Under the pieces are notes generated by a model. That model had not been told where the DNA came from and ran no database searches. It saw only the letters and a list, made by a program, of their open reading frames with translations. This document shows, piece by piece, positions 7,042 to 63,703 of a stretch of DNA of 64,000 nucleotides. A program made the translations under genes and the position numbers. Origin of the DNA: an uncultured Anaerolineales bacterium (GTDB lineage Bacteria > Chloroflexota > Anaerolineae > UBA7937); NCBI GenBank assembly GCA_964383935.1, contig CAYLIE010000006.1, positions 35,377 through 99,376 of the forward strand. Reading direction: 5' to 3'. The stretch's first letter is position 1. Every line of letters starts with the position of its first letter.

Positions 7042-7593
7042 ATGAAGCGTACGAAAGTATCCCTTTGGGAAACGATAACCCTTTGCCAGACCCAAGCAGG
7101 CTGGGTAGGTTTACTCCTCTCTCCTCGAGGGCTACGAGCCCTGGAGTACCCCCGCCCCAGCGCGGAGGAGGCTCTGGCCAACCTCCAGAAGCGTTGGCCC
7201 CAGGCTTCATTTGAAAAGTCGGCTGCCGAGGGGTTGAAGGAGCAGTTGCGGCGGTATTACGCCGGGAAGCCGGTGACCTTCGCGGCGAAACTCGATCTAG
7301 AAGGCTATACCCCTTTTGAACGGCGGGTTTGGGCGGTTACCTCTCGCATCCGCTATGGCCAGACTCGCCCCTACTCCTGGGTGGCGGAAGAGGTAGGCTC
7401 GCCGCGTGCTTATCGGGCCGTGGGCGCGGCCCTGGCCAAGAATCCCATCCCCATCATCATCCCCTGTCACCGTGTGCTTCGAAAAGATGGAAGTCTGGGC
7501 GGCTATGGCGGCGGCCTGGATATGAAGCGCCGCCTCCTGGAGATGGAGGCGAAAGGGGCCCACACCCCTGTGGTGTCAGAAGTTACCTTCTGA
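7042..7593 (+). CDS. ogt: Methylated-DNA-protein-cysteine methyltransferase
   Basis: PCHRV active-site motif in IPIIIPCHRVL. Confidence 0.85.
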   Translation: MKRTKVSLWETITLCQTQAGWVGLLLSPRGLRALEYPRPSAEEALANLQKRWPQASFEKSAAEGLKEQLRRYYAGKPVTFAAKLDLEGYTPFERRVWAVTSRIRYGQTRPYSWVAEEVGSPRAYRAVGAALAKNPIPIIIPCHRVLRKDGSLGGYGGGLDMKRRLLEMEAKGAHTPVVSEVTF

Positions 7594-11743: not shown

Positions 11744-12082
11744 ATGGCCGGTAATGAGATGCAAGTGGGGCTCCTTTGGTTCGACGATGACCCGAAGAAA
11801 GAGGTCTCTCTAAAGGTTAAGGAGGCCGCTGGGCGGTACTTTGAGAAGTTCGGCCAGCGGCCCAATCTCTGCTACGTGAGCCCCGCCACCCTTCCCCTCC
11901 CGCGGGATCCTCTAGGGACGGAAGGCGTCCATCTCGATCCTTCGGATGGTGAACATCCTCAGGATGTGAACCATGGCCTGCGTGTCTTGTCCAGCCCCCT
12001 CATCCTCCCCGACCACTTCTGGGTGGGAGAGAGCCATCAATCCAAAGAGACTGGAAAAAGGGGGTCTCAAAGTCGAAGTTGA
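11744..12082 (+). CDS. Hypothetical protein (start uncertain; annotated ATG at 11726 overlaps the -10 box)
   Basis: ORF only; a possible alternative frame at the 3' end hints at a sequencing or frameshift issue. Confidence 0.3.
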   Translation: MAGNEMQVGLLWFDDDPKKEVSLKVKEAAGRYFEKFGQRPNLCYVSPATLPLPRDPLGTEGVHLDPSDGEHPQDVNHGLRVLSSPLILPDHFWVGESHQSKETGKRGSQSRS

Positions 12083-12221
12083 CGGCAAGTACCACTTCCC
12101 CATCGAGAAAAAGAGAGAGATCGATTAGAACGCAAAAAGGCTTCAAACTGAGCACCTCTGGAGGCTGGGCAGGATTTTCTAAGCCTGGTCAAGAGAGCCC
12201 ATCTGTGCTAGACTGAAATCG

Positions 12222-43578: not shown

Positions 43579-44277
43579 CTAGAAACTACATCTGAATGTT
43601 ATGTTCTGATGATGTCCTGAGCCCCACCATTTGTAGCGGAAGCTCTCCCTTATGGATAAAGCTGGCGCACCAGGATCGCAACTCCCCTTAATAGTGAGAT
43701 AATATTGCATGTCTGGGCCAGCCGGAGCCCAGAATTCGTGCTTCCAGAACCCAGGCTCCCAGTACTTGCTGGGATCCCCAGTGACCACACAGGCAGTGCC
43801 CAGATTCTGATGCTCAAAATAGACACCGTAATCATTGAGAGGGTTGCCAGCGGCATCGATGATGTAACCTTCAAAGATAGAGGAGGGCTGGCCTTCGCCC
43901 GGCTTCCCAGCCGCCGACGCCTTCTTGCTACCCGCCACATAGGAGCAAGCGTGAACCACTGGTGTAGGGGTATGAGTGGGGGTAGCGGTTGGAGGGGGAG
44001 GCGGCGGAGGGATAGGGGTGTTGGTAGCTGTAGGCATCGCCGTCGGCGAGGCGGCCGGGGTGGGAGTATCGGTGGGAACGGTGACTGGGGTATTCGTGGC
44101 TGTGGGAGTAGCCTCCGGAGTCGGTGTCTCTGTGACCAAAGGGGTGAAGGTGGGCTTAGGTGTCCTAGAGGGTGTAGGGGTCGCTGTGGGTGCTTGAGAG
44201 ACCAATTGACCAAGGGCACAGCCAGAGATTCCAATAAGGATAGAGATGGCGGTCAAAAGGGCGATCCCTTTTCTCAT
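43579..44277 (-). CDS. Lipoprotein with Thr/Pro-rich linker and Cys-containing C-terminal domain
   Basis: Lipobox ISGC; (TPTP)n low-complexity linker. Confidence 0.5.
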
Positions 44278-44400
44278 GGAGCGGCTCCTCTTCTTTCCCT
44301 CGAATTAAACGAGACCCCTATAGACAGTAAGTGAAACGATGGTGGGAAAAGGTTACCTGAGGACAAAGACCACTCATCAAACAAAAACGAACCCGGAGGG

Positions 44401-44751
44401 CTACCCCGGCACCTCGAACCGGTATCCTACCCCGCGCACCGTTCGCAGGTATACCGGCTTGCTCGGGTTATCCTCGATCTTCTCGCGGAGCCATCGGATG
44501 TGAACATCCAAAGTCCTTGTATCCTCCGTCCAGTCGGTTTCCCACACCTTCTTCATAAGGAACTTGCGGGTAAGCACCGCACCGCCGTTGTTCATGAAGG
44601 TCTGGAGCAAAGCACACTCCTTGGGCGTCAACCGAACGGTCGCCTTGCCCTTGATAACACAGCGATTCTCGAGGTCTAAAGATATACCCCCAGCCTGGAG
44701 ATGCCCAGCCTTTCTTTTCCTGCGGGTTCGAGGGGTTTTTCGCTTTGCCAT
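44401..44751 (-). CDS. Stand-alone OmpR/PhoB-type winged-helix DNA-binding protein (no receiver domain)
   Basis: LTPKECALL...LMKKVW...DVHIRWLREKIE...YLRTVRGVGYRF effector-domain motifs; basic N-terminal tail. Confidence 0.55.
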   Translation of the reverse strand: MAKRKTPRTRRKRKAGHLQAGGISLDLENRCVIKGKATVRLTPKECALLQTFMNNGGAVLTRKFLMKKVWETDWTEDTRTLDVHIRWLREKIEDNPSKPVYLRTVRGVGYRFEVPG

Positions 44752-44944
44752 TCGGTTGACCTTGTTACCCGCATCCGCGGGAATACAGAGGAAAAGACGT
44801 TCCTAGTATACAACGATGTCGCCCAACTGTCAACATCATCCATTATATAACAGCCTTTCTTCTCTTGGCAACCTTTGGCTATCGAGAGGAGAAAGGGCCA
44901 TCGCTATTCGATGGCCCTTGAAAATCGATCCTCCCCGCCTACAT

Positions 44945-45784
44945 CTAATGGCGGCCCCTGCCCTTTCCGCGGTCTTCGGGAGGGCCAATGCCTTCTTTCT
45001 TCTCCTGTCCGGGTGGCACCTCGGGCCGCCCTTGTTGGATAGCCTCCCTAGCCCGCTCATGGCCCCGTCTTGAAACCTCAAGAGCCCTTTCTAGAGCAGG
45101 CTTAGCCTGCTCCGGAACGCGGCTCTGGACCCTTTGAAGCACCTCCTGCTGACGCTCGGTAAGATCGACCATTTTCTCAAAGAGGGGCTCGCGATTCCCT
45201 TCCGGGGCTACCTCTATCTCCTCCAGGGTTCCTTCCGTTTCCGTGGCCAGTTCCACTAAGACGCTTTCCTCCACTTCTTCGCCCCTGTTATCCAACGCTT
45301 CTATCTCCTCCATCCTACGCCTTGCGAACTCCAAGCGGAGATGAGTCTTACCAGGCGGGTCACGAACCACCAGGAGCCCTAGCCTTTCGGTCACCCTCTT
45401 TACAGGATACAAGGGGTCTCCGGGTATACTGCTTTGCGCGGCGATGGCGGTACCGGCACTGGCTAGCGCCAGGGCCAGGATCACGGCCCAGACGGCTGCC
45501 CATCTCCTCGCCCTTCCAGGGGAAAAGATAGGAGTCAAGTACCGATCCCAGAGAGAGCGCCTCCTGGCTCGCTGTAGAGCCTTCGCCTTCTCAACTAGGC
45601 GTTTTTCCAAGTCGCCCACGAAGGCCTCTGTTGGCGGGACTGAGACCTTCTGGATTCGACTAGCAAGTTTCAGAAGAGGCCTTATCTCCTCGGCCAAAGG
45701 CTCCAGATTTTCGCCCTTGCGAAGACGCTCTAAACTTTCATCCAACAACGATTCAAAACCCTTTTTCACCACGCGGTTCTCCAC
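44945..45784 (-). CDS. Putative anti-sigma factor (single TM, extracytoplasmic coiled coil), downstream of ECF sigma
   Basis: Position and topology only. Confidence 0.35.
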   Translation of the reverse strand: MENRVVKKGFESLLDESLERLRKGENLEPLAEEIRPLLKLASRIQKVSVPPTEAFVGDLEKRLVEKAKALQRARRRSLWDRYLTPIFSPGRARRWAAVWAVILALALASAGTAIAAQSSIPGDPLYPVKRVTERLGLLVVRDPPGKTHLRLEFARRRMEEIEALDNRGEEVEESVLVELATETEGTLEEIEVAPEGNREPLFEKMVDLTERQQEVLQRVQSRVPEQAKPALERALEVSRRGHERAREAIQQGRPEVPPGQEKKEGIGPPEDRGKGRGRH

Positions 45785-45879
45785 CCGTTCACTATGCCTC
45801 TTTACGGAGTCTTTCCTCGAGACCTCTTAATCCCAAGAGATGACCATCAGTTCCCAAAACCCTCCCCCGGTTCTCTCCC

Positions 45880-46416
45880 TCATCCTTCCTTCTCCAAGAA
45901 TCGCCTCAGCGAGACCAAGGCCCGATGCTGAAGAGATTTCACTGCTCCTTCGCTCTTCTCCAACAACCGCCCTACTTCCGCATTGGTGAGCCCTTCTCCA
46001 AACTTGAGAACTATCACCTGCTGTTGCCCCTCCGTCAACCGCCCGAAGGCCTGGCGAAGGCGCTCCCTGGCCAACGCCGCCTCGGTCATAGCCGCGGGAC
46101 CTTCGCCAGGAGCGCTAAGCCTCTCACTCAGGGAAACGGTTTCTTTCCTGGCCTGACGGCGAAAGTAGTCCACCACTCGATCATGGGCGATGCGGAAGAG
46201 CCAGGCGGCGAAAGGCACCCCTCGATAGCCAAACGACTCTATCCCCTCCAGCATTTTAAGGAAGACATCGGCAGTCAGATCCTCCGCCAGATCCTCCCGG
46301 CCAACCCGTAGATGGATATACCGGTAGATAGCGCCCACGTGGTGGCGATAAAGCAGAGCGAGAGCCTGGGGATCGTACTCCCTGGCCCGCCGGATAAGCC
46401 CTTCCTCATCTGGCAC
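45880..46416 (-). CDS. ECF-type RNA polymerase sigma factor
   Basis: Region 2 and 4 motifs (FLKMLEGIESF..., AEVGRLLEKSEGAVKSLQHRA). Confidence 0.8.
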   Translation of the reverse strand: MPDEEGLIRRAREYDPQALALLYRHHVGAIYRYIHLRVGREDLAEDLTADVFLKMLEGIESFGYRGVPFAAWLFRIAHDRVVDYFRRQARKETVSLSERLSAPGEGPAAMTEAALARERLRQAFGRLTEGQQQVIVLKFGEGLTNAEVGRLLEKSEGAVKSLQHRALVSLRRFLEKEG

Positions 46417-46614
46417 TTTCCAAACTCGCTATCTGTTATCTTATACCGCTACAGAGTGTGAAAAGATACGGATATTGCCCCTTAGCAGATCAGATTTATA
46501 TACCCGTATCCTTTTATCCTATCGTACGGTATTAGCTATGAAAAGGCCCAGGTTCTGGCATAGTCTTCTTAACATTATAGCATGAATCAAATTCTTAGAT
46601 GGGAGAGAAAAGGG

Positions 46615-47148
46615 ATGCGAAAGAAGATCTTGACTCTGGCACTCCTTGTGGGAGCGATGCTTCTCCTGACGGCAACGGGAGTGTTGGCGGCCTCCCCTGC
46701 AGTCAGCAACCCCCACCCTATTCTCCAAGAGCCGCCGCCCCCTGAAACTATAACTAACCCCGTGGCGGCCATGATCGCCGCCTTCTTCGGCCTCGACTAC
46801 ACGCAAGTGCAGGCCTGGCACGATGACGGGACGGGCTATGGCAACATGACCATCGCTCTCTTCTTCGCTGAGGCCAGCGGATTGACTTTCGGCCAGATAA
46901 TGGCCATGAGGGGACGAGAGGAAGGTGGAGGTTGGGGCTACATCATTAAGGAACTTGGATTGGATATCAAGAGAAGAGATACGAATCTGGGAGCCATCAT
47001 GTCCGGGCGAGCCCTGACGGACACCATGACCGGGACTCTCCAAGTAGAAGCAAAAAGAGGCAGAGGCCGACCGCAGGTCCCTCCTGGCTGGGAGCGCGGG
47101 AGGGGACTGGGGCTAGGCAGAGGCCCCGGACGAGGGCACAACCAGTAA
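46615..47148 (+). CDS. Secreted hypothetical protein with Gly/Arg-rich C-terminus
   Basis: Signal peptide; start moved to the ATG after the GGGAGAG RBS. Confidence 0.4.
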   Translation: MRKKILTLALLVGAMLLLTATGVLAASPAVSNPHPILQEPPPPETITNPVAAMIAAFFGLDYTQVQAWHDDGTGYGNMTIALFFAEASGLTFGQIMAMRGREEGGGWGYIIKELGLDIKRRDTNLGAIMSGRALTDTMTGTLQVEAKRGRGRPQVPPGWERGRGLGLGRGPGRGHNQ

Positions 47149-47245
47149 CCCACTCTTCCCAAAAATGGACATGCGAGGAGGGGAGATTTGTAATATACTA
47201 TATTTGGACGGTTTGTTTTCGATTCACAGAAGAAGGTGGGAATTA

Positions 47246-48031
47246 ATGAAGGGGCTTTTCTTCCCCATCTTGATAAGTTTGCTACTAGCAGCCTGTGGTA
47301 CCACTCCCACCTCCGATGTAGAGGCAACTATCCAAGTTGGCATTGCAGCCACACTGACCGCACAGCCGACTGATACGCCTGTGCCGACGCCGAAAGCAAC
47401 TCCCACACCAACAGAGATACCAACCCAGACGCCAACCCCAAAGCCATTCCCTCCTTTTCATCGTCCATCGCCGGGAAAAGAAACCTCTCCCTCCACTTAC
47501 TCCTTAGAAACCTACGAAGGTCAATGGTTCTCATTTCAGTATCCACCCAATGCTCGGGTGGAAAACGTCGCCCCCTTTCCTCCCGAAACAAGCGAGATTC
47601 ACGTTATTGGCCCCATAGTTTGGGTCAAACCAGGTGATGCGGACTGGGGTTGGAACGGCCCAGCCTACAAGTTGATCATACTGACCTACGAGAACCCTGA
47701 TGGGCTTGATTCAGAATCGTGGGCGCGGGACTATATCCTTAATACTTGGAAGGAGGCCAGAGAACGGAACGAGCCATGGGGGTCGTTGCCAGTGTCTGAG
47801 GAGGGAGTGATAGAAGAAGATAGCGTGGGAAGTTCCGTTGTAGCTGGTCAGCCTGCATTCTGGGTTAATTACTTCGCTTTTGACTCTTCCTATCCCACCT
47901 TCTACCTGACCGGCAATGGCCAAGTAGTAGCACTGAGTTTCAACGATTACCCTTTGGAGAACCAGCCGTTGGCAACGATGCAACAGGACGTTTATGCGTT
48001 GATCATCGACACTTTCCGTTTTAACAAGTAG
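47246..48031 (+). CDS. Lipoprotein with Thr/Pro-rich linker, unknown function
   Basis: Lipobox LLAACG. Confidence 0.45.
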   Translation: MKGLFFPILISLLLAACGTTPTSDVEATIQVGIAATLTAQPTDTPVPTPKATPTPTEIPTQTPTPKPFPPFHRPSPGKETSPSTYSLETYEGQWFSFQYPPNARVENVAPFPPETSEIHVIGPIVWVKPGDADWGWNGPAYKLIILTYENPDGLDSESWARDYILNTWKEARERNEPWGSLPVSEEGVIEEDSVGSSVVAGQPAFWVNYFAFDSSYPTFYLTGNGQVVALSFNDYPLENQPLATMQQDVYALIIDTFRFNK

Positions 48032-48043
48032 AGCGTTCTTCCC

Positions 48044-48088
48044 AAAAAACAAACGGACATGTGTGTACGTCGCACGTCCGTTTTTTTC
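48044..48088. terminator. Bidirectional intrinsic terminator between convergent genes
   Basis: A-run, acggacatgtg...cacgtccgt hairpin, T7. Confidence 0.6.
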
Positions 48089-48103
48089 TAGAAACTACAG
48101 TTG

Positions 48104-50668
48104 TCACGTCACTCGCGGCACCCGGGCCAAGATCTCGGAGACCACCTCGTAGTTAATGGTGCCTAACTTATCCGCCACCTCTTCAGCGGTGATCCTCTCT
48201 TCCCCTTGCTGGCCGATAAGAACCACCTCATCCCCCTGACGGACCCCGGGGATATCGGTGACATCGATCATACTCATATCCATACATACCCGCCCCACCA
48301 CCGGAGCCCGCTGGCCCCGCACCAAGACCTCGCCCCAGGTTCTGGGCCCCCTGCGGAAGCCATCGGCGTAGCCTACGGGGATGACGGCGATGGAGGAAGC
48401 TCTCTCGGTGCGATAGGTACAGCCATAACTTATGCAACTCCCTTCCGGCAGCCGTTTCACCTGGGCGATCTGGGTCTTGAAAGAGAGAACCGGTCTAAAA
48501 CTATCAGGACAACGAACCTCTGGGGAAGGGTCGAGCCCATAGATCGCTATCCCCGGCCGCACCAGGTTGAAGTAGGATTCAGGGAGAGTGAAGATGGCAG
48601 CGCTATGAGCCGCATGGATGAGGGGGATATGGATGTCGTTAGCCTCCAGCTCCCTCACTACCCCTTCGAAGACCTCCAGTTGGCGGAGCGTGTACTCCTT
48701 CCCCCAGCCGGGGATGCCGTGGGCATCCTCCGCGTCGGCGATGGCGAAATGGGTAAAGATCCCCTCGACCACAAGGTTGGGTAACCCTTGGAGCGCCTGC
48801 ACGAAGGGGAGAACGTCAGAGGGAAGGTGGCCCAGCCGGCCCATGCCCGTATCCACCTTGATGTGCACCCACACCTGAGAGTTGAGAGCCACGGCAGCGC
48901 GGGAGAAAGCCCTGGCCACATCTAGAGAGAAGACGGTGGCTGTGACATCGTGAAGGACGATATCTCTAGCCTGCCAAGCAGGGGTATAGCCCAGAATGAT
49001 GATGGGAGCGGAAATGCCAGCCTTCCTGAGGGCTACCGCCTCGCCGAGGCAAGCCACCCCCAGCATAGTGGCCCCGTTGGCCAGAGCGGTGCGCGCTACC
49101 TTGACCGCGCCATGGCCGTAAGCGTCAGCCTTGAGGGTGACGATGATCCCCACCCTCTCCCCCACTATCCTCTTGATCTCCCGCACATTATAGGCTAGAG
49201 CCCCCAGATCGATCTCTACCCAGGTAGGGCGATCGGGAGCGATGATGTGAATCCGCTTCCAAGCCGGGCTCTGCCGGACGAGGAGGTTCTCTGCCTGCGA
49301 GGGGTCGGCCAGTAGTTTCTCCACCACCCTCTCCATGCGAGCCTCCATCGACCCCTTCACCAGCACTATATCGCCGGGGGTTATCCTTTCGGCTATGCTC
49401 CGGACCGCCTCCTCCGTAGTGTAGGTCACAAAGATCCGCTCCTCTGTCAAGCCGCATCTTCCCGCCTCGTCGGCCACGATAGTGGCCCGCTCACCCTTGG
49501 TGACCAGATAATCCACCACCTGGGCGGCCCGGCGCCCCACCTCCCTATGTCCCTCCTCCTCGTAGGCCCCCAGTTGCAACATATCTCCCAAGATGGCAAC
49601 CCTTTCTCCTCCCTCCATTTGGGCTAAGAGGTCGAGGGCTGCGAGGGTCGAGGTCGGGTTAGCGCTGTAACTGTCGTCCAAGAGCAGACTGCCGTTTATC
49701 CCCTCCAAAGGCTTCAAGCGCCCCCTAATAGGCTTGAGTTCTTCCAGGCTTTGAGCTGCCTCCTGCAGGGAGAGACCGTAGAGAGTTCCCACCCCTATGG
49801 CCGCAAGAGCGGTGTAGACGTTATGGCTACCCAAAAGAGCAAGCCGGACTTGAGCACGCTCATCTTGATAGCGGACGAAAAATCGCACACCCTCACGATT
49901 GGTGGCGATTTCGCAGGCGTAGAGATCGGCCTTGGGGTCCGTCCCGAAGGTGAGCACCTGGGCTTTGGTCCTGCCGGCCATGGCTCGAACCCGGGGGGCA
50001 TCGAAGTTGAGGAGAGCGTAACCCTCCTCAGGCAAGGCTTCGATCAGCCTCCCCTTCTCCCGGGCTATATTCTCCAGGCTGCCCAGATACTCCAGATGAG
50101 CGGCGTTCACGCTCGTCACCACTCCTATGCGGGGCGAGGTCATCTGAGCCAACTCGGCGATCTCGTTGAAACTATCGCAGGCCATCTCCAAGACCGCGAT
50201 TTTGTGCCCCGGGCGAAGCCTCCCCAAAGCGATGGGCAACCCATACCGCCCGTTATAGTTGGCGTGGTTCCTGAAGACGGGAAAAACCTTTTCCAGAACC
50301 TTGGCGATAGCCTCCTTGGTGCTGGTCTTCCCAGTGCTCCCCGTTACCCCGATGACCTCAGGGGCGTATTTTTTGATTATATATTCGCCCCAATGGCGAA
50401 GGGCTTGTTGGGTATCGGGCACCATCACACAGGTCACACGGTGAGGAGCGAGGTCTATCTCCCGCTCGCAGAGCACCCCTGTCGCCCCATCGCGACAGGC
50501 CTCAGCGATATAATCGTGGCCGTCGCCCTTCTCCGTCTTCACCGCCAAGAAGAGTTCTCCTGGCTGGAGGATGCGGGAGTCATAGCAGAAGTCGTCGAAC
50601 TCCTGAGCGAACACAGGGCCATAGGTCCGACCACCAGTGGCCGCGAGGATATCAGACAGGTAGATCAT
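48104..50668 (-). CDS. murF: Bifunctional UDP-MurNAc-tripeptide:D-Ala-D-Ala ligase (MurF) / alanine racemase (Alr) fusion
   Basis: N-terminal ~460 aa has Mur ligase motifs (GVTGSTGKTSTKE). C-terminal ~390 aa is Alr (RPTWVEIDLGALAYNVREIK...TLKADAYGHG). Confidence 0.85.
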   Translation of the reverse strand: MIYLSDILAATGGRTYGPVFAQEFDDFCYDSRILQPGELFLAVKTEKGDGHDYIAEACRDGATGVLCEREIDLAPHRVTCVMVPDTQQALRHWGEYIIKKYAPEVIGVTGSTGKTSTKEAIAKVLEKVFPVFRNHANYNGRYGLPIALGRLRPGHKIAVLEMACDSFNEIAELAQMTSPRIGVVTSVNAAHLEYLGSLENIAREKGRLIEALPEEGYALLNFDAPRVRAMAGRTKAQVLTFGTDPKADLYACEIATNREGVRFFVRYQDERAQVRLALLGSHNVYTALAAIGVGTLYGLSLQEAAQSLEELKPIRGRLKPLEGINGSLLLDDSYSANPTSTLAALDLLAQMEGGERVAILGDMLQLGAYEEEGHREVGRRAAQVVDYLVTKGERATIVADEAGRCGLTEERIFVTYTTEEAVRSIAERITPGDIVLVKGSMEARMERVVEKLLADPSQAENLLVRQSPAWKRIHIIAPDRPTWVEIDLGALAYNVREIKRIVGERVGIIVTLKADAYGHGAVKVARTALANGATMLGVACLGEAVALRKAGISAPIIILGYTPAWQARDIVLHDVTATVFSLDVARAFSRAAVALNSQVWVHIKVDTGMGRLGHLPSDVLPFVQALQGLPNLVVEGIFTHFAIADAEDAHGIPGWGKEYTLRQLEVFEGVVRELEANDIHIPLIHAAHSAAIFTLPESYFNLVRPGIAIYGLDPSPEVRCPDSFRPVLSFKTQIAQVKRLPEGSCISYGCTYRTERASSIAVIPVGYADGFRRGPRTWGEVLVRGQRAPVVGRVCMDMSMIDVTDIPGVRQGDEVVLIGQQGEERITAEEVADKLGTINYEVVSEILARVPRVT

Positions 50669-50689
50669 GAAAAACAGCCTCTCAAGAGT

Positions 50690-50875
50690 CTAGCCCCTTC
50701 GGTAGAGAAGCCCGCCGATTATGACCGCCACCGCTCCCACCAGGCTGCCCCCCATCTGCTGGTAGCCGAATCCCGGGTCACGCCCCAACCCTATCATATC
50801 CGCGCTCACTGATATAAGAAGAAGGGCGATGCCCCCTACGAGGAGAAGCAAGCCTATGAGCCTGGTGGTACTCAT
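50690..50875 (-). CDS. Small two-TM membrane protein
   Basis: ORF only. Confidence 0.3.
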   Translation of the reverse strand: MSTTRLIGLLLLVGGIALLLISVSADMIGLGRDPGFGYQQMGGSLVGAVAVIIGGLLYRRG

Positions 50876-50996
50876 GCTATCCCTCCTAATGGCCGTACAA
50901 ACATTCTAACACTCTGGCCCCCAGGGCGCAACCTTGCCTATTGAGAGCATAATTGCTAGAATTTAGTTCAACAAGGTTGAGGGTTAAGAGAGTACC

Positions 50997-52040
50997 ATGA
51001 TGCGGGTGGGAGTGCTATTTGGAGGAGCCTCCTCAGAACGAGAGGCCTCGCTGGCTAGCGGGCGACAGGTTTGCTTTCAACTAAACCCCCAGAAATATAG
51101 TTGTCTTCCCCTCTTCGTGGACACAGAGAACAGGTTCTGGGAACTTCCCAAGAAACTTATCGTTCAGAACACCACTTCTGATATCATCGCCCGCTTGGAG
51201 AGCGAAGCGAAACGCATCCACTACGAGGATCTGAAGGATCTCATCGATTTCGCTTTCATCGCCCTCCATGGCAAATACGGCGATGATGGCTGCATCCAAG
51301 GACTCCTCGAACTTTTGGGGATACCCTATACCGGCTCTGGGGTCCTGGCCTCGGCCCTCTGCATGGACAAAACCATGGCCCACCGGGGGCTCAAAGCCTC
51401 CCAGTTGGAAGTGGCCCAGGAGATGGTGGTCCAAGAGACCGATTGGGAACGAGACCCGCGAGGAACGCAAGATGAGATCGTCGAGGAGATCGGTCTCCCC
51501 TGCGTGGTCAAACCCAGCCGCGAAGGCTCAAGCATCGGGGTGTCGGTGGTAGAGAAGGAGAAAGATATCGGCCGGGCTCTGGAAATAGCCTTCGAGTGGG
51601 ATAACTCGGCCCTCATAGAAGAGAAACTGGATGGCCTGGAGTTCTCTTGCATCGTCTTGGGGAATGAGGAACTTTGGCCCATGCCTCCCACAGAGACAGT
51701 GGCTACCCATGAGTATCTAACCTATGACGACAAATATATGCCCGGCCGCTCCCAGAAGATCACCCCGGCCCGGGTATCGGAGGAGACGATCAGGCATATA
51801 CAAGAAGAGGTGATGAAAGCCTATAAAGTCTTGGGCTTCAAGAACTATGGCCGCCTGGACGGCTTCCTCCTAGAGGATGGCCGGATACTCCTCACCGATC
51901 CCAACACCTCTTCCGGGATGGCCCCTTCATCCTTCATGTTTCACCAAGCGGCGGAGATAGGGCTGAACGCTACCATGCTCTTCGATAGGATAATCGAGCT
52001 GGCCCTGGAGGCCCACGAGAATAAAAGAGGGCCGCTATAG
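50997..52040 (+). CDS. ddl: D-alanine--D-alanine ligase (paralog 1)
   Basis: VGVLFGGASSEREASLASG N-terminus, ATP-grasp motifs. Confidence 0.85.
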   Translation: MMRVGVLFGGASSEREASLASGRQVCFQLNPQKYSCLPLFVDTENRFWELPKKLIVQNTTSDIIARLESEAKRIHYEDLKDLIDFAFIALHGKYGDDGCIQGLLELLGIPYTGSGVLASALCMDKTMAHRGLKASQLEVAQEMVVQETDWERDPRGTQDEIVEEIGLPCVVKPSREGSSIGVSVVEKEKDIGRALEIAFEWDNSALIEEKLDGLEFSCIVLGNEELWPMPPTETVATHEYLTYDDKYMPGRSQKITPARVSEETIRHIQEEVMKAYKVLGFKNYGRLDGFLLEDGRILLTDPNTSSGMAPSSFMFHQAAEIGLNATMLFDRIIELALEAHENKRGPL

Positions 52041-52085
52041 AGAGACGAAAGATTATGTATAGAGAGCCAGGGAGGGAGAGAAAAA

Positions 52086-53637
52086 ATGCCTAAGAGTGGT
52101 GTAAACATCCGAAGACTTGCTCAAAATATTGCGGACCAATATCCTTTCGAACCCGAGGTCGCTACCTTGATCGAATTAGTAGCGAATGCACTTGACGCCA
52201 AAGCTCGTGTAATCAACATCCAGATTTCAGATGCAATCCTCCGAGTAATCGACGACGGTGTTGGAATGACACGAAAGCAGTTCAAGGAGTACCACGATTT
52301 CGCTACGACCACTAAGGAGAGGGGTGCCGGAATCGGCTTTGCAGGACAGGGCGCCAAACTGGCACTAAACTTCTGCGATAAGATCATCAGTGAGACTCGC
52401 AGCAAGAACTATCATGACACAACTATATGGAGATTGCAGGATGATGATGCTCCATATCATTACATTGAGGAGAGAACACTATCAGAGACGGGAACGCGAG
52501 TCTCTCTATATCTGGAAGAGGATCGCAAGTCATTCTATACACCCGCTCTAGTGAAGCAAGTCCTCGAAGAGCATTATTTTCCACTACTTGATCGGCAATT
52601 ACTCTATGTCTATACCGGAGAGCGTCCCCTTTTGAAAGGTGGAAAGGGCAGGCTTGAACGCTATCGAGAACTGTACAGGAAAGGCCTGAAATTCATCGTG
52701 AACGGCTCGGTGATCACTCTTGACCCTATCGAAGCGACAGTGGAGCATCAGAAAGAGTTCTCCATTCTCCGCTACAGAAAAGCACAGGGGTGGGGATTCT
52801 TTGGGCTAGCAGAACAGGCCCTCCCCGAACATCTTCAAGGGGTGGGGATAGCAACATACGGTAAGGTCATAGAGCGAACCTGGTTCAAAAAAGAGCCACG
52901 CCATAAGAATCGAATTTTCGGATGGATGGAGGCGCCATATCTCATCAAGGCTGTTACAACGGACAAGTGCCGATTCCAGAGAGGAAATAAGAATTGGGAG
53001 AGTTTCTTTCGCAAGGCGCAAAGGGAATTCTCAACATGGCTGGAGGAAGCAGGCCTGATGGAAAGGCCCGAACCTCGACCACTCGCCTTTACAGAACTGG
53101 AACGTGAAATCAACCGGATACTGAAACAGATTCCATCACTTACCTTCTTCGGAACTCGGACGCTGGCAAAGGTTGCGATTCCCGACGAACTTGGCGAAGA
53201 AAGACTCGTAGGCAAGGGAACACAAAAGGTCCAGGGCACTAAAGGTCCAGGGCACTAAGGGTGGCGAGGGTGAGGGAAAAGGCGTTGATATCTATCCAGG
53301 GCCAGAGGAAGGACTTGCACCCAGTCTCGAGCTTGGAACCGACAAACCAGCCAAAGAACATCAGCGGGTTATTCGTGGAGGCATTCGTCTTGCTTTTGAG
53401 CAAAGACCGGACCTCTCCAGCGAAGGGCGGTTTGATGGCGAAACCGTCTTTATCAATGAGGCTCATTCTGCATACGCCAAAGCTTCGGGAGACAAGCAGG
53501 CAGCAAACTATCACGTTCTTAAGACCACTGCTCTAGAACTCACAAGATTTGCGATGGAACGAGATCCCGAACCATCATATCAGAAAGCCTTCGATCTTAT
53601 GGGCCAGTTTTTCACACTTTGGGGAGAGCAACGATGA
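52086..53637 (+). pseudogene. GHKL/Bergerat-fold (HATPase_c, MORC/MutL-like) ATPase, ~511 aa if intact; frameshifted by a 16-bp tandem duplication (annotated ORF stops at 53258)
   Basis: ELVANALDA (N-box) and DDGVGM (G1) motifs. Removing 53242-53257 restores an open frame ending at the TGA at 53635-53637, giving ...GTKGGEGEGKGVDIYPGPEEG...LWGEQR. Confidence 0.6.
53226..53257 (+). repeat. Perfect 16-bp tandem duplication (aaggtccagggcacta x2) creating a frameshift
   Basis: Read directly from the sequence. Confidence 0.9.
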
Positions 53638-54128
53638 CACAACTCAAAATCGGTTTCAAGGTTCAAAAGATCGATTCACCTGAGGGCAAGGAAACCTTCA
53701 CGGCTACCGTCCCGTTAGCTTCTATATTCGAAAAAGAGATGGTCGCTCATGACATGAAAACATCTCTCAAGGCCCTAGAGCACGACTATACAGCTCTAGT
53801 TGCTGACCTATTAGATATCGCAAGTGCGCTAAGAAGCCGGAGCGCTTCAGAACCGCGAGTCCTCCTGTACTGGCAGTTTGGCGACAGGATACAACAATAT
53901 GAAAATAAATATGAAAATAGCCTCTTCTTCCTGGACGGAATGACCAAGTATCTAGTAAGAGACGTTGGCGTCTCAGACAAGATGATCAGTCGGTGCCGGC
54001 GCTTCCGTAGACTTTACCCGGATAGGGATAGAATCGATCCCAATCTTTCGTTTGATCGCTACGTGTCTAGTTTTGAAGGTGGATATATATCGGCTAAACG
54101 CAAGCGAAAGCGTGGTAGCAATGTCTAA
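53634..54128 (+). CDS. Hypothetical 165-aa protein, translationally coupled to the GHKL ATPase (ATGA) and overlapping the ddl-2 start (ATGTCTAA)
   Basis: ORF with start/stop overlaps on both sides; low GC like the ATPase gene. Confidence 0.45.
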   Translation: MTQLKIGFKVQKIDSPEGKETFTATVPLASIFEKEMVAHDMKTSLKALEHDYTALVADLLDIASALRSRSASEPRVLLYWQFGDRIQQYENKYENSLFFLDGMTKYLVRDVGVSDKMISRCRRFRRLYPDRDRIDPNLSFDRYVSSFEGGYISAKRKRKRGSNV

Positions 54129-55179
54129 AGCCAGGCTCCTCCGCGTAGGCGTCATCATGGGCGGCATCTCATCGGAGCGGGAGATATCGCTGGAAAGCGG
54201 AAGGAACATCTTCAACAACCTCGACCCCACCAAGTACGAAGGCATCCCCATCTTCCAGGACAGCAAAGGGCGACTTTGGGAGATGACCCTCTCCCTTTTG
54301 GTCCAGAACACCACCGCTGATATCGAGGCCAGACTAGAAAAAGAAGCTGCCCGCATCCCCTACGAGAGGTTGAAGGAACTGGTCGATTTCGTCTACATCG
54401 GACTCCACGGCAAGTATGGAGAGGATGGCTGCCTCCAGGGCCTTCTGGAACTCCTCAATATCCCCTATACCGGCTCCGGGGTCCTGGCCTCGGCTATCGG
54501 GATGGACAAACATATGACCCGCCGCCTCCTCGTCGCCGCCGGCATCCGAGTCCCAAGATACCTGACCATCTCCCAGAAAGCGTGGCAAGAGCGAAGAGAG
54601 GAGATAGAGAAGAATATCGAGGAGACCCTGGGCTACCCCTGCGTGGTGAAGCCCACGCGAGAGGGGTGCAGCACCGGTCTCTCCGTGGTACGCGAAGGGG
54701 AAGGGTTAGCCCCGGCTATGGAAAAAGCCTTCCAGTGGGACACCACCTGTTTAGTGGAGGAGTTGCTGAGGGGCACGGAGATCACCTGCGGAGTGATAGG
54801 CAATGAAAACCCCATCGCCTTTCTCCCTACCGAGACACCTCCGCGCGGCGATTTCCTCACCGTGGAGGAGAAGTTCTTGCCCGGTGAGGGAGAGAATATC
54901 ACCCCCGCTCGCCTCCCCCCAGAGATGATAGAGAAGGTACAGAAGGTAATGGTTGAGGCCTACAAAGCCTTGGGGACAAAAGTCTATGCCCGCCTCGACG
55001 GCTTCGTGATCGATGGGGAGGTGATAGTCACCGAGACCAACACCCTCCCCGGCATGACCCCCTCCACCTGTATCTTCCACCAGGCGGCCGAAGAGGGGAT
55101 GAGCCCCATGGACTTGGTCACCAAAGTAATCGAGCTATCCTTGGAAGCTCATAGCCGAAAGAAAGGGCCGCTCGATTGA
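54121..55179 (+). CDS. ddl: D-alanine--D-alanine ligase (paralog 2)
   Basis: VGVIMGGISSEREISLESG; ~60-65% identical to paralog 1 in the blocks compared by eye. Confidence 0.85.
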   Translation: MSKARLLRVGVIMGGISSEREISLESGRNIFNNLDPTKYEGIPIFQDSKGRLWEMTLSLLVQNTTADIEARLEKEAARIPYERLKELVDFVYIGLHGKYGEDGCLQGLLELLNIPYTGSGVLASAIGMDKHMTRRLLVAAGIRVPRYLTISQKAWQERREEIEKNIEETLGYPCVVKPTREGCSTGLSVVREGEGLAPAMEKAFQWDTTCLVEELLRGTEITCGVIGNENPIAFLPTETPPRGDFLTVEEKFLPGEGENITPARLPPEMIEKVQKVMVEAYKALGTKVYARLDGFVIDGEVIVTETNTLPGMTPSTCIFHQAAEEGMSPMDLVTKVIELSLEAHSRKKGPLD

Positions 55180-55235
55180 GCGGCCAACCAGAGAGGCATC
55201 GATCCAGCAGGCAAATGCCTACTGGCCCTGCTATC

Positions 55236-55949
55236 TCAATACCCCTTCAACGCCTCCTTCTGCGCCACCAGCAACTCCTCTATGCCCTTCTGGGCCAGGT
55301 CCAAGAGCCCATCCATCATCTGGCGAGAGAAAGCCCCACCTTCTCCGGTGCCCTGCACCTCCACATACTCCCCTTCCGCGGTCATCACCACGTTAAAATC
55401 TACCTGTGCTTGATGATCCTCCTCATAGGTGAGATCTAAGAGGGGCTCGTCCTGCAACACTCCCACGCTGATGGCCGCCACTTGGGTCTTGAGCACCCTG
55501 GCCGGGAGGAGCCCCCCTTTTATCAGCCTGCGCAGGGCTATGGCCAGGGCCACGTAGCCCCCAGTGATAGCGGCGGTGCGCGTCCCCCCATCGGCCTGGA
55601 GGACATCGCAATCTATGATCACCGTCCTCTCTCCCAAGAGACGGAGGTCCACGGCCACGCGCAAGGCTCGGCCGATGAGACGGCGGATCTCCAGCGTGCG
55701 GCCGCCCAAGCCCCGGGTCTCCCGGGGGGTGCGCTGGCGAGTGGAGCGGGGCAACATGGCGTACTCGCCGGTGACCCACCCCTGCGCTTGTTCCTTCAAC
55801 CAACGGGGTACCGTCTCCTCCACGCTAGCAGCACAGATGACGCGGGTCTCCCCCACCTCTATGAGCGCTGACCCCTCCGGATAGTCTAGATACCCTGGGG
55901 TGATCTTCACCGGTCGCATCTCATCGTATTTCCGACCATCGAAACGCAT
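55236..55949 (-). CDS. rph: Ribonuclease PH
   Basis: RPVKITPGYLDYPEGSALIEVGETRVIC..., 237 aa. Confidence 0.9.
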   Translation of the reverse strand: MRFDGRKYDEMRPVKITPGYLDYPEGSALIEVGETRVICAASVEETVPRWLKEQAQGWVTGEYAMLPRSTRQRTPRETRGLGGRTLEIRRLIGRALRVAVDLRLLGERTVIIDCDVLQADGGTRTAAITGGYVALAIALRRLIKGGLLPARVLKTQVAAISVGVLQDEPLLDLTYEEDHQAQVDFNVVMTAEGEYVEVQGTGEGGAFSRQMMDGLLDLAQKGIEELLVAQKEALKGY

Positions 55950-56055
55950 CCTCGCTCCCTTCTAAGCCCATACCATCAATCGCAGCCTCATCCGGGGTAA
56001 ACTGAGACCCCATATTAAGGCAAACACAAATTCTTAATTTCCAGTGGCGTCAGCC

Positions 56056-56203
56056 CGCCCCCTGGCCCGCCCGTGCTGTACGTAAAGTATCCCTCTGGGA
56101 AGCGCAGGGTGCGAAGCATTGATGCCAGGACGGGCCGGTACTTGCCAGCCTGTCCTAGCGCGCCTGCCCCAAGGCGTACCAGGCCGGGGTGACAGGCCAG
56201 GGG
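56056..56203. repeat. Intergenic repeat copy B, bounded by imperfect inverted repeats gccccctggcc/ggccaggggc; contains the 50-bp core at 56068-56117
   Basis: Core identical to 3999-4048; module 56134-56155 shared with 63821-63842 and inverted at 7623-7652. Confidence 0.55.
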
Positions 56204-60400: not shown

Positions 60401-60970
60401 CTAATGGGGCTCCCGCCCTGATTCTTTGAGCGAATAGAAGCAAAGCAGAGTGCTCCCATATCTTCTACGCTCTTGGAGTCCCAAGGTTTCAAGCCTCAAC
60501 TCCTGATACTCCTTGGGATGCATCTGGGCGATAATCAACCCTTCTGGCTTCAGGACCTCCCCATGGCTGTCCAAAGCCCGCAAGGTCTCGGCCCATAGCC
60601 CTCGATACTGAGGCGGTGCTAGATATACGATATCGAAGGAGGCCAGTATCCCCTTCCGGACAAAGCGAAAGACATCCTGCCGTATGACTCGGGCTCTATC
60701 CGTCAAGCCGGTGAGAGCCAGGTTCTCCTTGATCAACCCAACCGCCTTTCGGCCCTGATCCACGAAGACGGCTCTTTCCGCACCCCGACTGAGGGCCTCT
60801 ATCCCCACGCTTCCCGTGCCCGCGAAAAGGTCAAGGAAGTGTGCTCCCTCCACCCTAGGCCCCAGGATGTCGAAAAGGGCCTCCTTCACCCGGTCGGTGA
60901 TAGGACGGGTAGTAGTGCCAGGCAGAGATTTCAGCCGTCTCCCCTTGGCTGCTCCGGCGATAACCCGCAC
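60401..60970 (-). CDS. rsmD: 16S rRNA (guanine966-N2)-methyltransferase
   Basis: MRVIAGAAKGRRL...LDLFAGTGSVGIEALSRGA. Confidence 0.8.
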   Translation of the reverse strand: MRVIAGAAKGRRLKSLPGTTTRPITDRVKEALFDILGPRVEGAHFLDLFAGTGSVGIEALSRGAERAVFVDQGRKAVGLIKENLALTGLTDRARVIRQDVFRFVRKGILASFDIVYLAPPQYRGLWAETLRALDSHGEVLKPEGLIIAQMHPKEYQELRLETLGLQERRRYGSTLLCFYSLKESGREPH

Positions 60971-63688
60971 CTACGAAAGTCCCTCCAACTTCTCCAAGAG
61001 CCTCTCTTTCTCCTCCTCAAATCTGGCCAGTTTCTCTCGCTCCCGCTCTTGCACATCTAGAGGGGCCTTGGCCCTGAAATTCTCATTGTCTAGCAGGGCC
61101 TTCGCCCTGGCGATTTCCCCATCCAGTCGCAAAATCTGTTTGCTCAGAAGCTCTCGTTTCTCCTCTCTATCTATTTCCATCTTCAAACTGGTAGAGAATG
61201 GACCGGTTACGATGGGAATGCCCTCAATGGGCTTTGCTAGCGATATCACCCAATCCTGCTCTTGCACTCCGGCTAACCTCTCGAAAGTTGCTCTCTCTCC
61301 CATAAATAACTCGTGGCTTATCACCGTGTGCGCCAGGGGCACGACTCCAGGCTCCAACCTCTCCTCCGCTTTCCAGTTGCGGATGGCCCGGATATGCTCC
61401 CAGAGGGTCTCCTGTGCTCGCTCCACCTCCTCGTCTATCGGTCCCGCTTCCGGCCAGGGAGCGATTATGAGGCTCTCCCCCTCATGGGGCAGATGTTGCC
61501 ATATCTCTTCGGTGACGAAGGGCATGAAGGGGTGCAAGAGCCGCAAAGTGCGCTCTAACACGTAGACTAGAACGTAGCGCGTCCTCTCCTTCGCCCTCTC
61601 GTCATCGCCGTAGAGGGCCACCTTACTGGCCTCGATGTACCAATCGCAATACTCCCCCCAAAGGAACTCATATATCTGACGCCCCGCCTCACCGTACTGA
61701 TACCCCTCCATGAGGCGGTTCACCTCACTTATGAGACGGTTATGCCGGCTGAGGATCCAACGATCAGTCGGGGTAAGATCCCACTTCCAGGAATCGCCTT
61801 CAGGCAATTCGTACTCCTCAGGTAGATTGCCGGTCACGAAGCGAGCGGCGTTCCATATTTTATTGGCGAAGTTGCGGCTAGCCTCCACTTGCTGCAGAGA
61901 GAGCCTCATATCGTTACCCGGAGTGCTGCCGGTCATGAGGGTGAAGCGCAAGGCGTCGGTGCCGTACTCGTCCATCACCTCCAAGGGATCGATAACGTTG
62001 CCCTTGGAGCGGCTCATCTTCTCACCACCTTCATCCCTGACCAGGCCATGCAGATAGACGATATGGAAGGGGATATCGCCCACACACTCCAACCCCATCA
62101 TGATCATCCGGGCCACCCAGAAGAAGAGGATATCATAGGCTGTCTCCATCACCGTCGTGGGGTAGAAATAGCGCAGATCCTCGGTATCATCGGGCCAGCC
62201 CAAGGTCGAGAAGGGCCATAGCGCCGAGGAGAACCAGGTGTCCAGGATATCGGGATCCTGGCGAAGGTTCGTCCCCTTGCAACTTGTACACTCGCGGGGT
62301 TCATCAGTAGAGACGATAACCTCTTGACAATCGTTGCAGTACCAGACGGGGATGCGGTGCCCCCACCAGAGTTGCCGGGAGATACACCAGTCGCGGATAT
62401 TCTCTAGCCAGTTGTAGTAGACCTTGGTGAACCGCTCAGGGATGATCTCGATCCGTCCCTTGCGCACCACATCCAAGGCCTGCTCGGCCAAGGGCTTTAT
62501 CTTGATGAACCACTGCTCGGAGATGAGGGGCTCGATCATGGTATGGCAACGCTGACATCGCCCCGGCGCATGAAGATGATCTTCGACCTTGATCAACAGC
62601 CCTTCCTTCCCCAAGTCAGCCAGCAACCGCTCCCTAGCCTCATACCGATCCAACCCGGCGTAGGGGCCTGCCTCCTCGCTCATGGTGCCATCTGGGTTCA
62701 TCGCGTTAACGATAGGTAGATCATGGCGCTGGCCGATTTCGTAGTCGTTGGGATCATGGCCTGGGGTGATCTTCACGGCTCCAGTGCCGAACTCCATATC
62801 CACCGCTCGGTCAGCGATGATGGGGATCCTGCGACCCAAGAGAGGTAAGATAGCCGTCTTACCCACTAACCGATTGTAGCGCTCATCATTGGGATTGACG
62901 GCCACCGCCGTATCCCCCAGGATCGTCTCCGGCCTGGTTGTAGCCACCTCGATATACCCGCCCTTCCCTCGTCCCTCGGGATCCCTGCGGGAGGATCCTT
63001 TACGGACGGCCAGCGGGTAGCGCACCCAGTAGAGTTTGCCTCGCTCCTCCTCGTGCTCCACCTCCAAGTCTGAGATAGCCGTCCCACAGCGAGAGCACCA
63101 ATTGACGAGATACTTGCCCCGATAGATCAAACCTTCTTCATAGAGGCGGACAAAGGCCATTCGGACCGCTCGGGAAAGGCCTTCGTCCATGGTGAAGCGT
63201 TCCCTCGTCCAGTCGCAGGAGGCCCCCAGCCGTCGGAGTTGCTGGTTTATGTAACCTCCGTGTCTCTCCTTCCAGGCCCAGCCCAACTTGACAAACCACT
63301 CCCTGCCCAGATCATGGCGAGCCAGCGGTCGACCATCCGAGGGCACCGGATACCCTATCTCCCTGAGAAGATCGTCCAGTTCTCGCTCTTCCAACCCTCT
63401 CTCAATCACATTGTGAGTAGCGATACTAGCGTGGTCGCTACCTGGCAGCCAGAGGGTAGGCTCGCCCCGCATCCGGTGCCAACGGATCATGATGTCCTGG
63501 ATGGTTATAACGAGGGCATGGCCGATATGCAGTTCCCCCGTGATATTGGAAGGAGGCATGGAGATTACAAAGGGCCTCCGCTCCCGGTCGACCTGGGGGG
63601 TCAAATAGCCCCTGCTTTCCCAAAACCTGTAGAGCCGCCCCTCAGTCGTTTTAGGATCGTAGGTCTTAGACATCTTCTGCTTAGCCAT
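60971..63688 (-). CDS. valS: Valine--tRNA ligase
   Basis: HIGH (ELHIGHAL), KMSKS, C-terminal coiled coil; 905 aa. Confidence 0.95.
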   Translation of the reverse strand: MAKQKMSKTYDPKTTEGRLYRFWESRGYLTPQVDRERRPFVISMPPSNITGELHIGHALVITIQDIMIRWHRMRGEPTLWLPGSDHASIATHNVIERGLEERELDDLLREIGYPVPSDGRPLARHDLGREWFVKLGWAWKERHGGYINQQLRRLGASCDWTRERFTMDEGLSRAVRMAFVRLYEEGLIYRGKYLVNWCSRCGTAISDLEVEHEEERGKLYWVRYPLAVRKGSSRRDPEGRGKGGYIEVATTRPETILGDTAVAVNPNDERYNRLVGKTAILPLLGRRIPIIADRAVDMEFGTGAVKITPGHDPNDYEIGQRHDLPIVNAMNPDGTMSEEAGPYAGLDRYEARERLLADLGKEGLLIKVEDHLHAPGRCQRCHTMIEPLISEQWFIKIKPLAEQALDVVRKGRIEIIPERFTKVYYNWLENIRDWCISRQLWWGHRIPVWYCNDCQEVIVSTDEPRECTSCKGTNLRQDPDILDTWFSSALWPFSTLGWPDDTEDLRYFYPTTVMETAYDILFFWVARMIMMGLECVGDIPFHIVYLHGLVRDEGGEKMSRSKGNVIDPLEVMDEYGTDALRFTLMTGSTPGNDMRLSLQQVEASRNFANKIWNAARFVTGNLPEEYELPEGDSWKWDLTPTDRWILSRHNRLISEVNRLMEGYQYGEAGRQIYEFLWGEYCDWYIEASKVALYGDDERAKERTRYVLVYVLERTLRLLHPFMPFVTEEIWQHLPHEGESLIIAPWPEAGPIDEEVERAQETLWEHIRAIRNWKAEERLEPGVVPLAHTVISHELFMGERATFERLAGVQEQDWVISLAKPIEGIPIVTGPFSTSLKMEIDREEKRELLSKQILRLDGEIARAKALLDNENFRAKAPLDVQEREREKLARFEEEKERLLEKLEGLS

Positions 63689-63703
63689 TTGAACCTCCCT
63701 TCC

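Follow-up and report, generated by a model that had tools for sequence, protein, structure and literature searches.

A recent 16-bp tandem duplication that probably inactivates an Hsp90/MORC-like GHKL ATPase gene in an uncultured Anaerolineales bacterium

Main finding

In a 64,000-nucleotide stretch of DNA from an uncultured Anaerolineales bacterium (Chloroflexota; GenBank assembly GCA_964383935.1, contig CAYLIE010000006.1, positions 35,377 to 99,376 of the forward strand; hereinafter, the window), a gene coding for a GHKL ATPase is interrupted by a perfect 16-bp tandem duplication that shifts the reading frame and removes the C-terminal domain of the protein. We consider this duplication to be a genuine, ordinary and evolutionarily recent frameshift mutation, probably a null one, in an accessory gene, and assign to this interpretation a probability of about 0.78. 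Close relatives carry the unit once and encode the full-length protein, the duplicated allele recurs in independently assembled contigs, and the lost domain is conserved throughout the family. The ATPase gene belongs to a two-gene module that is patchily distributed among bacteria and archaea and in which the ATPase has been disrupted in several other lineages. Positions are those of the window unless a homologous locus, denoted by L and a number, is named.

Structure and probable origin of the duplication

The unit AAGGTCCAGGGCACTA is present in two adjacent copies and does not occur elsewhere in the window on either strand (Table 1). Perfect identity with period 16 extends over 34 bp, which implies a junction microhomology of 2 bp (AA); Tandem Repeats Finder reports an array at 53221-53262 with period 16, 2.6 copies and 92% matches. 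By chance, a perfect 16-bp tandem duplication is expected about 2e-5 times in 64 kb of the composition of the window, and when units of 8-40 bp are considered, the window contains one further perfect tandem duplication, an in-frame 12-mer at 53896 in the downstream gene. As 16 is not divisible by 3, translation changes frame and encounters a stop codon three codons beyond the last native residue, so that the current open reading frame (ORF) encodes 390 amino acids (aa), namely native residues 1-387 followed by Pro-Gly-His. Removal of one copy in silico yields an uninterrupted frame of 511 aa that closes at a TGA (53635-53637) overlapping the ATG of the next gene (53634-53636; ATGA). The duplication site corresponds to residues 381-386 of the restored protein, within a linker that is predicted to be disordered. 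An earlier examination of the same DNA, made from the letters only (hereinafter, the sequence-only reading), had described the perfect duplication and the frameshift in a GHKL ATPase gene, the TAA that ends the annotated ORF and the restoration of a frame of about 511 aa upon deletion of one copy; all three descriptions are borne out, with exact coordinates.

Under the favored interpretation, a single replication-slippage or template-switch event at the AA microhomology would have duplicated 16 bp in tandem beside a G-rich, G-quadruplex-capable stretch, within the linker-coding sequence of the gene for a 511-aa Hsp90/MORC-like GHKL ATPase. A canonical G-quadruplex motif of the form GGGN6GGGN6GGGN3GGG, one of the 16 such motifs on both strands of the window, overlaps the 3' end of the duplication on the coding strand, and a replication stall induced by this element, followed by a template switch at the microhomology, is a plausible course of events. 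A hairpin was sought as the cause of slippage by folding the stretch as single-stranded DNA, and no stable structure was predicted (z = 0.08). The frameshifted product would retain the ATPase and middle domains and would lack the C-terminal domain of about 85 residues.

Table 1. Coordinates of the duplication, the disrupted ATPase gene and the adjacent genes in the window
Feature	Position	Strand	Remark
Unit copy 1, AAGGTCCAGGGCACTA	53226..53241	+	Corresponds to the single ancestral copy of the relatives
Unit copy 2, inserted	53242..53257	+	Faces a 16-bp gap in the closest relatives
Period-16 tract, 34 bp	53225..53258	+	Implies AA junction microhomology
Premature TAA	53256..53258	+	Product of the frameshift
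Truncated GHKL ATPase ORF, 390 aa	52086..53258	+	Predicted to retain the Bergerat-fold ATPase domain, the Hsp90/MORC-like middle domain and part of the linker
Orphaned 3' part of the ATPase gene, +1 frame	53259..53637	+	Restored residues 388-511: remainder of the linker and C-terminal domain
Canonical G-quadruplex motif, GGGCACTAAGGGTGGCGAGGGTGAGGG	53250..53276	+	Overlaps the 3' end of the duplication; may have contributed to slippage
Partner gene, 164 aa, intact, DUF1016_N-like, basic C-terminal tail	53634..54128	+	ATG overlaps the TGA of the restored ATPase gene
D-Ala-D-Ala ligase paralog ddl1	50997..52040	+	Upstream, 45 bp from the ATPase start
D-Ala-D-Ala ligase paralog ddl2	54142..55179	+	Downstream, starts 13 bp after the partner gene

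The native ATPase and the lost C-terminal domain

Matches to the Pfam families HATPase_c_3 (45.1 bits; cut-off 25) and HATPase_c (34 bits; cut-off 26.4) assign the gene product to the GHKL (Bergerat-fold) ATPases. A homolog search with the restored protein found 160 proteins; figures on length and coverage refer to the 120 that were listed, nearly all of which are 495-535 aa long and cover 97-100% of the restored protein. Among about 150 homologs, none ends at the shorter position except for those that are themselves broken or fragmentary. The long, 511-aa form is, judging from these comparisons, the native one; a check of homolog lengths had been proposed in the sequence-only reading.

In an alignment of 40 sequences, the invariant residues of the ATPase part include E30, N34 and D37, which we take to be motif I; D56, G58 and G60, presumably motif II; G80, G84 and G89, motif III under the same assignment; and T137, motif IV. 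The region lost through the frameshift contains eight further invariant residues (R422, E441, N452, A457, Y470, H471, F504 and W507) and many near-invariant ones, and all eight are still encoded in the window. An AlphaFold model of the restored protein has a mean predicted local distance difference test score (pLDDT) of 78.5, with confident N-terminal GHKL and middle domains at residues ~1-350 (pLDDT above 80 across residues 20-330) and a confident C-terminal domain at 427-511, separated by a disordered segment at 355-426 (pLDDT below 50). Modeled alone, the C-terminal domain of about 85 residues reaches a pLDDT of 89.1 and is predicted to comprise three strands, a short helix and two long helices; comparison of this model with solved structures gave no significant match, and there was no nuclease among the weak matches.

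A profile of the C-terminal domain matched 214 proteins among 1.84 billion representative ones. In the 150 of these that were listed, the match lies at or near the C-terminal end; the full-length proteins are ~460-570 aa long and the rest look like fragments. The domain is present in every full-length homolog and surpasses, in sequence conservation, all other non-catalytic parts of the protein. It is probably a constitutive dimerization or partner-binding module, by weak analogy with the C-terminal domain of Hsp90/HtpG. The open part of the downstream frame spans 53212-53637, and its first in-frame start codon is the ATG at 53554, 27 codons from the end; with no usable start codon of its own, the C-terminal domain cannot be made separately. 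The ATPase cycles of GHKL proteins generally depend on a constitutive dimerization module. Given this dependence and the conservation of the lost domain, the duplicated allele is most likely null.

Close relatives, assemblies and age of the event

The closest relatives of the window gene share 94% (L001), ~94% (L008), 85% (L006), 82% (L002) and 78% (L007) DNA identity with it. In codon-level DNA alignments, a clean 16-bp gap stands opposite the second copy in L001, L006, L002 and L007; L001 contains the identical 16-mer once, and L008 encodes an uninterrupted ATPase of 511 aa. The comparison with related strains that the sequence-only reading had suggested has thus returned single-copy alleles in all close relatives.

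Both copies of the unit are present in two Logan contigs that are 100% identical to the window, one of 12,001 bp from run SRR14802574 (corresponding to 44086-56086) and the other of 3,230 bp from run SRR30905122; neither contig breaks at the duplication site. An NCBI contig (99,614 bp) also encodes the exact 390-aa product. Every assembly of the strain has the duplicated allele as its consensus, so that this allele is either fixed or at least in the majority. The exact protein of the intact haplotype is absent from a collection of 15 billion protein sequences, in which the 90%-identity cluster consists of three sequences, the truncated protein and two relatives of about 94% identity. Exact-pattern scans of a metagenome contig collection, for either the single-copy or the duplicated junction, gave no match; they did not return L001 either, so this collection evidently lacks such short contigs.

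No second stop codon or indel was found in the window ATPase gene, and all family-invariant residues are intact on both sides of the lesion; by these features of the sequence, the duplication looks recent. Substitutions on the window branch are not significantly relaxed, with synonymous to non-synonymous counts of 8:6 upstream and 2:5 downstream of the lesion. The event is younger than the split from the 94% relatives, which is as fine a date as can be given.

Recurrent disruption of the ATPase

Four other lineages also have a broken ATPase gene, with a different lesion in each, and the partner gene is intact each time. These lesions are a TAG at about residue 124 (L025, 10355-10399), a 1-bp insertion at about residue 460 (L028, ~11360), an AT-rich insertion of ~138 bp at about residue 338 (L037, JGI 3300035660 Ga0373629_0000340, ~7147-7284) and a TAA at about residue 227 that is found on eight contigs (L038/L039; ~5960 in L038). 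The insertion in L037 has terminal inverted repeats (GGAGCGTGTCC ... GGACAGACTCC) and is possibly a miniature transposable element. As the majority of these lesions cannot revert, the family as a whole shows gene loss rather than switching. The recurrent breakage leads us to infer that the ATPase can be dispensed with and may be costly; the lesion in the window would then be one more instance of the same decay.

Alternative explanations

The sequence-only reading had left three possibilities side by side, namely a very recent inactivating mutation in a costly gene, a reversible slipped-strand ON/OFF switch and an assembly error. Recent inactivation is the part of the first that we favor, whereas the cost is so far only suggested, by the four further independent disruptions. 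An assembly or sequencing artefact, in which the source DNA has one copy and an assembler or polisher doubled the 16 bp, might be suspected in a metagenome-assembled contig, as such assemblies carry indel errors. However, the identical 32-bp structure was assembled from two different sequencing runs as well as in the NCBI contig, which makes this explanation very unlikely, and we give it the least credence. In addition, the 34-bp periodic tract is shorter than 16 + 31 bp and hence should contain no repeated 31-mer and create no de Bruijn ambiguity, and short-read assemblers tend toward collapsing repeats, not making them. That the allele still functions is also distinctly improbable. The 390-aa product might be a working domain-loss variant, with the ATPase and middle domains intact and all their invariant residues kept, or +1 recoding at CAC-UAA-G might give the full-length protein with five additional residues, which the disordered linker would tolerate and for which the downstream frame is open from 53212. 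Against the domain-loss variant stands the C-terminal domain with its eight invariant residues, retained by every full-length homolog, whose profile matches only the extreme C-terminus of family members among the proteins listed. Recoding was rejected: there is no slippery codon at the shift site, the tRNA-His that reads CAC in the P site is unable to re-pair with ACU, folding of the stretch as single-stranded DNA predicted no stable nucleic-acid structure (with the z value given above), and the arrangement is confined to this strain, with no conservation behind it.

A reversible contingency switch, in which the two-copy tract would change its copy number by slipped-strand mispairing and the population would hedge the expression of the ATPase module, is unlikely as well, albeit the better of the alternatives. 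Phase variation by changes in repeat number is known in defense genes, such as the restriction-modification systems of Neisseria (PMC6789123), and in Mycobacterium tuberculosis the copy number of tandem repeats switches at 1e-2 to 1e-3 per chromosome (PMC12817950). The 16-bp unit is not divisible by 3, the two perfect copies share 18 bp of register-shifted identity, and precise deletion of one of them would give back a fully intact gene with all invariant residues preserved; the repeated inactivation of the ATPase in other lineages is compatible with fluctuating selection. Nevertheless, there are two copies only, the close relatives have one and none has an array, all three assemblies of the strain represent the OFF form, with contigs that run unbroken through the site, the intact haplotype is missing from the protein collection, in which the cluster has three members, and the nonsense, insertion and +1 lesions of the other lineages are irreversible and are not repeats. 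Moreover, classical contingency tracts, with their many copies, slip at far higher rates than a pair of 16-bp copies. Thus, even though exact reversion of a two-copy duplication is possible in principle, the switch proposed by the sequence-only reading has found no positive support.

Several points weigh against the interpretation of the duplication as a recent null mutation in a decaying accessory gene. The evidence consists of assembled consensus sequences, and a minority of single-copy, revertant molecules may exist in the population. The independence of the samples behind SRR30905122 and SRR14802574 is judged from their far-apart accession numbers, and no paper with the run or assembly accessions came up in a full-text search. 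Loss of function is deduced from conservation, and a C-terminally truncated GHKL protein could retain partial or altered activity. The 5:2 excess of non-synonymous over synonymous substitutions downstream of the lesion hints at relaxation, with counts too small to date the event. Finally, given the 3:1 target size, five of five lesions would fall in the ATPase and not in the partner about one time in four.

The two-gene module

The partner gene directly follows the ATPase gene in 21 of the 23 loci from species-representative genomes, and the other two loci end at a contig edge. The protein it encodes shows good conservation and has a basic C-terminal tail; its homologs show weak, sub-threshold matches to DUF1016_N in 15 of 22 cases (best E 2e-4; 17 bits for the partner versus a gathering score of 32.8), and the partner weakly matches the models of the PADLOC candidate PDC-S02 (best E 3e-6). 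No NCBIfam cut-off is reached by either protein of the pair, and PHROGs and PADLOC contain no full-length match to either, so that both are outside the curated families. The module is found in Chloroflexota, Thermotogota, Atribacterota, Bacteroidota, WOR-3, Omnitrophota and archaea, with a patchy distribution. By analogy with MORC/paraMORC and GHKL-Shedu proteins, it is a candidate defense or DNA-surveillance system in which an ATPase clamp would act with a DNA-binding partner; a search of the literature on DUF1016 with GHKL and on TmtA found nothing usable.

Within the partner gene of the window, a perfect in-frame 12-bp tandem repeat (AATATGAAAATA twice, encoding QYENKYEN) occupies 53896-53919; it was considered as a second recent duplication and rejected, as the homologs have equal length at this place. 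In one Anaerolineae locus (L018, 4978-6531), a 517-aa ORF joins the partner to an AlkZ-like DNA glycosylase domain (Pfam E 1e-64), either as a real fusion or through a lost stop codon. No conserved third gene was found among the neighbors of the examined loci, and the downstream ORFs of 220, 248 and 249 aa in three loci are unrelated. A 178-aa Mrr_N winged-helix protein, encoded directly after the pair in five loci (L012, 11976-12512; L013, L015, L016 and L026), may be an optional third component.

Genomic neighborhoods

In the window, the module lies between two D-Ala-D-Ala ligase paralogs (Table 1) that are 52% identical at the protein level and 74% identical over 230 nt of DNA, and a murF-alanine racemase fusion gene is located upstream of ddl1 on the minus strand (48104-50668). 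The G+C content is 0.47-0.52 in the module and 0.57-0.62 in the flanks, and the relative with 85% identity (L006) has the same flanks as the window.

Elsewhere, the neighbors are of two kinds. Defense-type genes include Eco57I-type restriction-modification genes in L009 and L016, the latter locus also encoding a PLD-SNF2 helicase and a Schlafen/AlbA_2 protein, and AlwI restriction-modification genes together with GmrSD in L007. Housekeeping and DNA-repair neighbors are represented by uvrA in eight Anaerolineae loci, secA, valS and PolX in Dehalococcoidia, and the AlkZ-like fusion mentioned above. In L009 (Anaerolineae MAG W31_47, DAOULQ010000005.1), where the module adjoins a large serine recombinase gene as well as the Eco57I-type gene, a direct repeat of ~70-100 bp (9806-9876 and 12039-12108; 93% identity over 54 nt) brackets the module, which suggests a cassette-like insertion with a duplicated target. 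The valS gene is located 1.5-8 kb from the module in four Chloroflexota contexts (window, ~60791-63699; L009, 16588-19356; L032, 13581-16256; L038, 10828-12846), and secA is upstream of the module in Dehalococcoidia loci; the proximity of these two genes may reflect an old syntenic position or an insertion hotspot.

Implications

The mutation itself, a textbook tandem-duplication frameshift, matters little beyond the need to correct the annotation of the 390-aa ORF to that of a disrupted gene for 511 aa. The more useful by-product is a compact, strictly conserved two-gene module that combines an Hsp90/MORC-like GHKL ATPase, with its family-specific C-terminal domain, and a small basic DUF1016_N-like protein. 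Outside curated families and knocked out independently at least five times, it is a candidate for experimental study as a defense or DNA-maintenance system, and the naturally broken alleles suggest that cells can live without the C-terminal domain and the ATPase. A bolder proposal, that the pair is a new, widely transferred defense or DNA-surveillance module with a costly, repeatedly silenced ATPase, and that the revertible 16-bp duplication acts here as a contingency switch that can re-arm it, appears doubtful, and we would put little weight on it.

Comparison with known systems

Structurally, the ATPase is predicted to be a GHKL protein of the Hsp90/MutL/MORC type with an S5-like middle domain. 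The closest solved structures by sequence are the N-domains of Hsp90 and endoplasmin (E 1e-8). In Foldseek searches with the model, the best matches are the N-terminal plus middle domains of TRAP1, Hsp90 and GRP94 (E 3e-16, TMq ~0.4), and the ATPase of human MORC4 is matched with E 6e-14 and TMt 0.53; alignments to the TRAP1, GRP94, HSP90 and MORC4 modules extend over ~390-420 columns, with E-values from 1e-16 to 1e-13 and TMt up to 0.55. The three-part layout of N-terminal domain, middle domain, linker and C-terminal domain is shared with the Hsp90 family (HtpG, TRAP1, GRP94), and there is a weak, non-significant likeness between the C-terminal domain of the ATPase and the dimerization domain of HtpG (TMq 0.41-0.46, E >1). 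Unlike members of that family, however, the ATPase has 511 rather than ~620-700 aa, is 12-17% identical to them, scores far below the curated thresholds (26.7 versus 371 bits for the NCBIfam HtpG model and 26 versus 455 for HSP90), is always paired with the small DUF1016_N-like gene and has a patchy distribution across bacteria and archaea.

The prokaryotic MORC/paraMORC GHKL ATPases of restriction-modification systems (Iyer, Abhiman & Aravind 2008, PMC2292703) and the GHKL-Shedu protein VcSduA, which is paraMORC3 (PMC12137116), resemble the ATPase in the combination of GHKL and S5-like middle domains and in their sporadic occurrence across distant phyla; furthermore, some of the module loci are adjacent to Eco57I-type or AlwI restriction-modification genes, GmrSD or a PLD-SNF2 helicase gene. 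The MORC family in the sense of the 2008 study is marked by a GhXhhpXXRhl motif in its S5 domain and by linkage to SF2 helicases and nucleases. The module differs from these systems in that there is no conserved fused or neighboring nuclease or SF2 helicase in the 23 loci (the PLD-SNF2 neighbor occurs in L016 only), the partner is small and does not look enzymatic, and many loci are in housekeeping or repair surroundings (uvrA, secA, valS, PolX, ddl). In particular, the ATPase has no Pfam match to DUF4263, the PD-(D/E)xK nuclease that defines the type I-D Shedu/paraMORC3 (VcSduA-like) systems. A comparison with PADLOC-DB v2.0.0 gave no significant full-length match to a defense system; residues 30-94 of the ATPase, which contain the GHKL motif, weakly match TmtA with E 8e-5. 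The partner is similarly related at a distance to the DUF1016/YhcG proteins (PADLOC candidate PDC-S02), through its weak matches to the DUF1016 N-terminal domain and to PDC-S02, and differs from them in its sub-gathering scores and in having a basic tail instead of the PD-(D/E)xK nuclease half.

With respect to the mutation, two classes of known events are relevant. Phase-variable contingency loci (PMC6789123, PMC12817950) share with the window a repeat unit that is not a multiple of 3, a location in the coding region of a possibly defense-related gene and the prospect that loss of a copy re-enables it; the window differs from them in having two copies of a long, unique unit, no tract in relatives and no copy variation between assemblies. 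Spontaneous short tandem-duplication frameshifts, in turn, are characterized by a perfect head-to-tail copy of a short unique segment, a 2-bp microhomology, a broken frame and absence from relatives, all of which apply to the window. The event in the window differs from this class in no essential respect and belongs to it, with the adjacent G-quadruplex motif as a possible local promoter.

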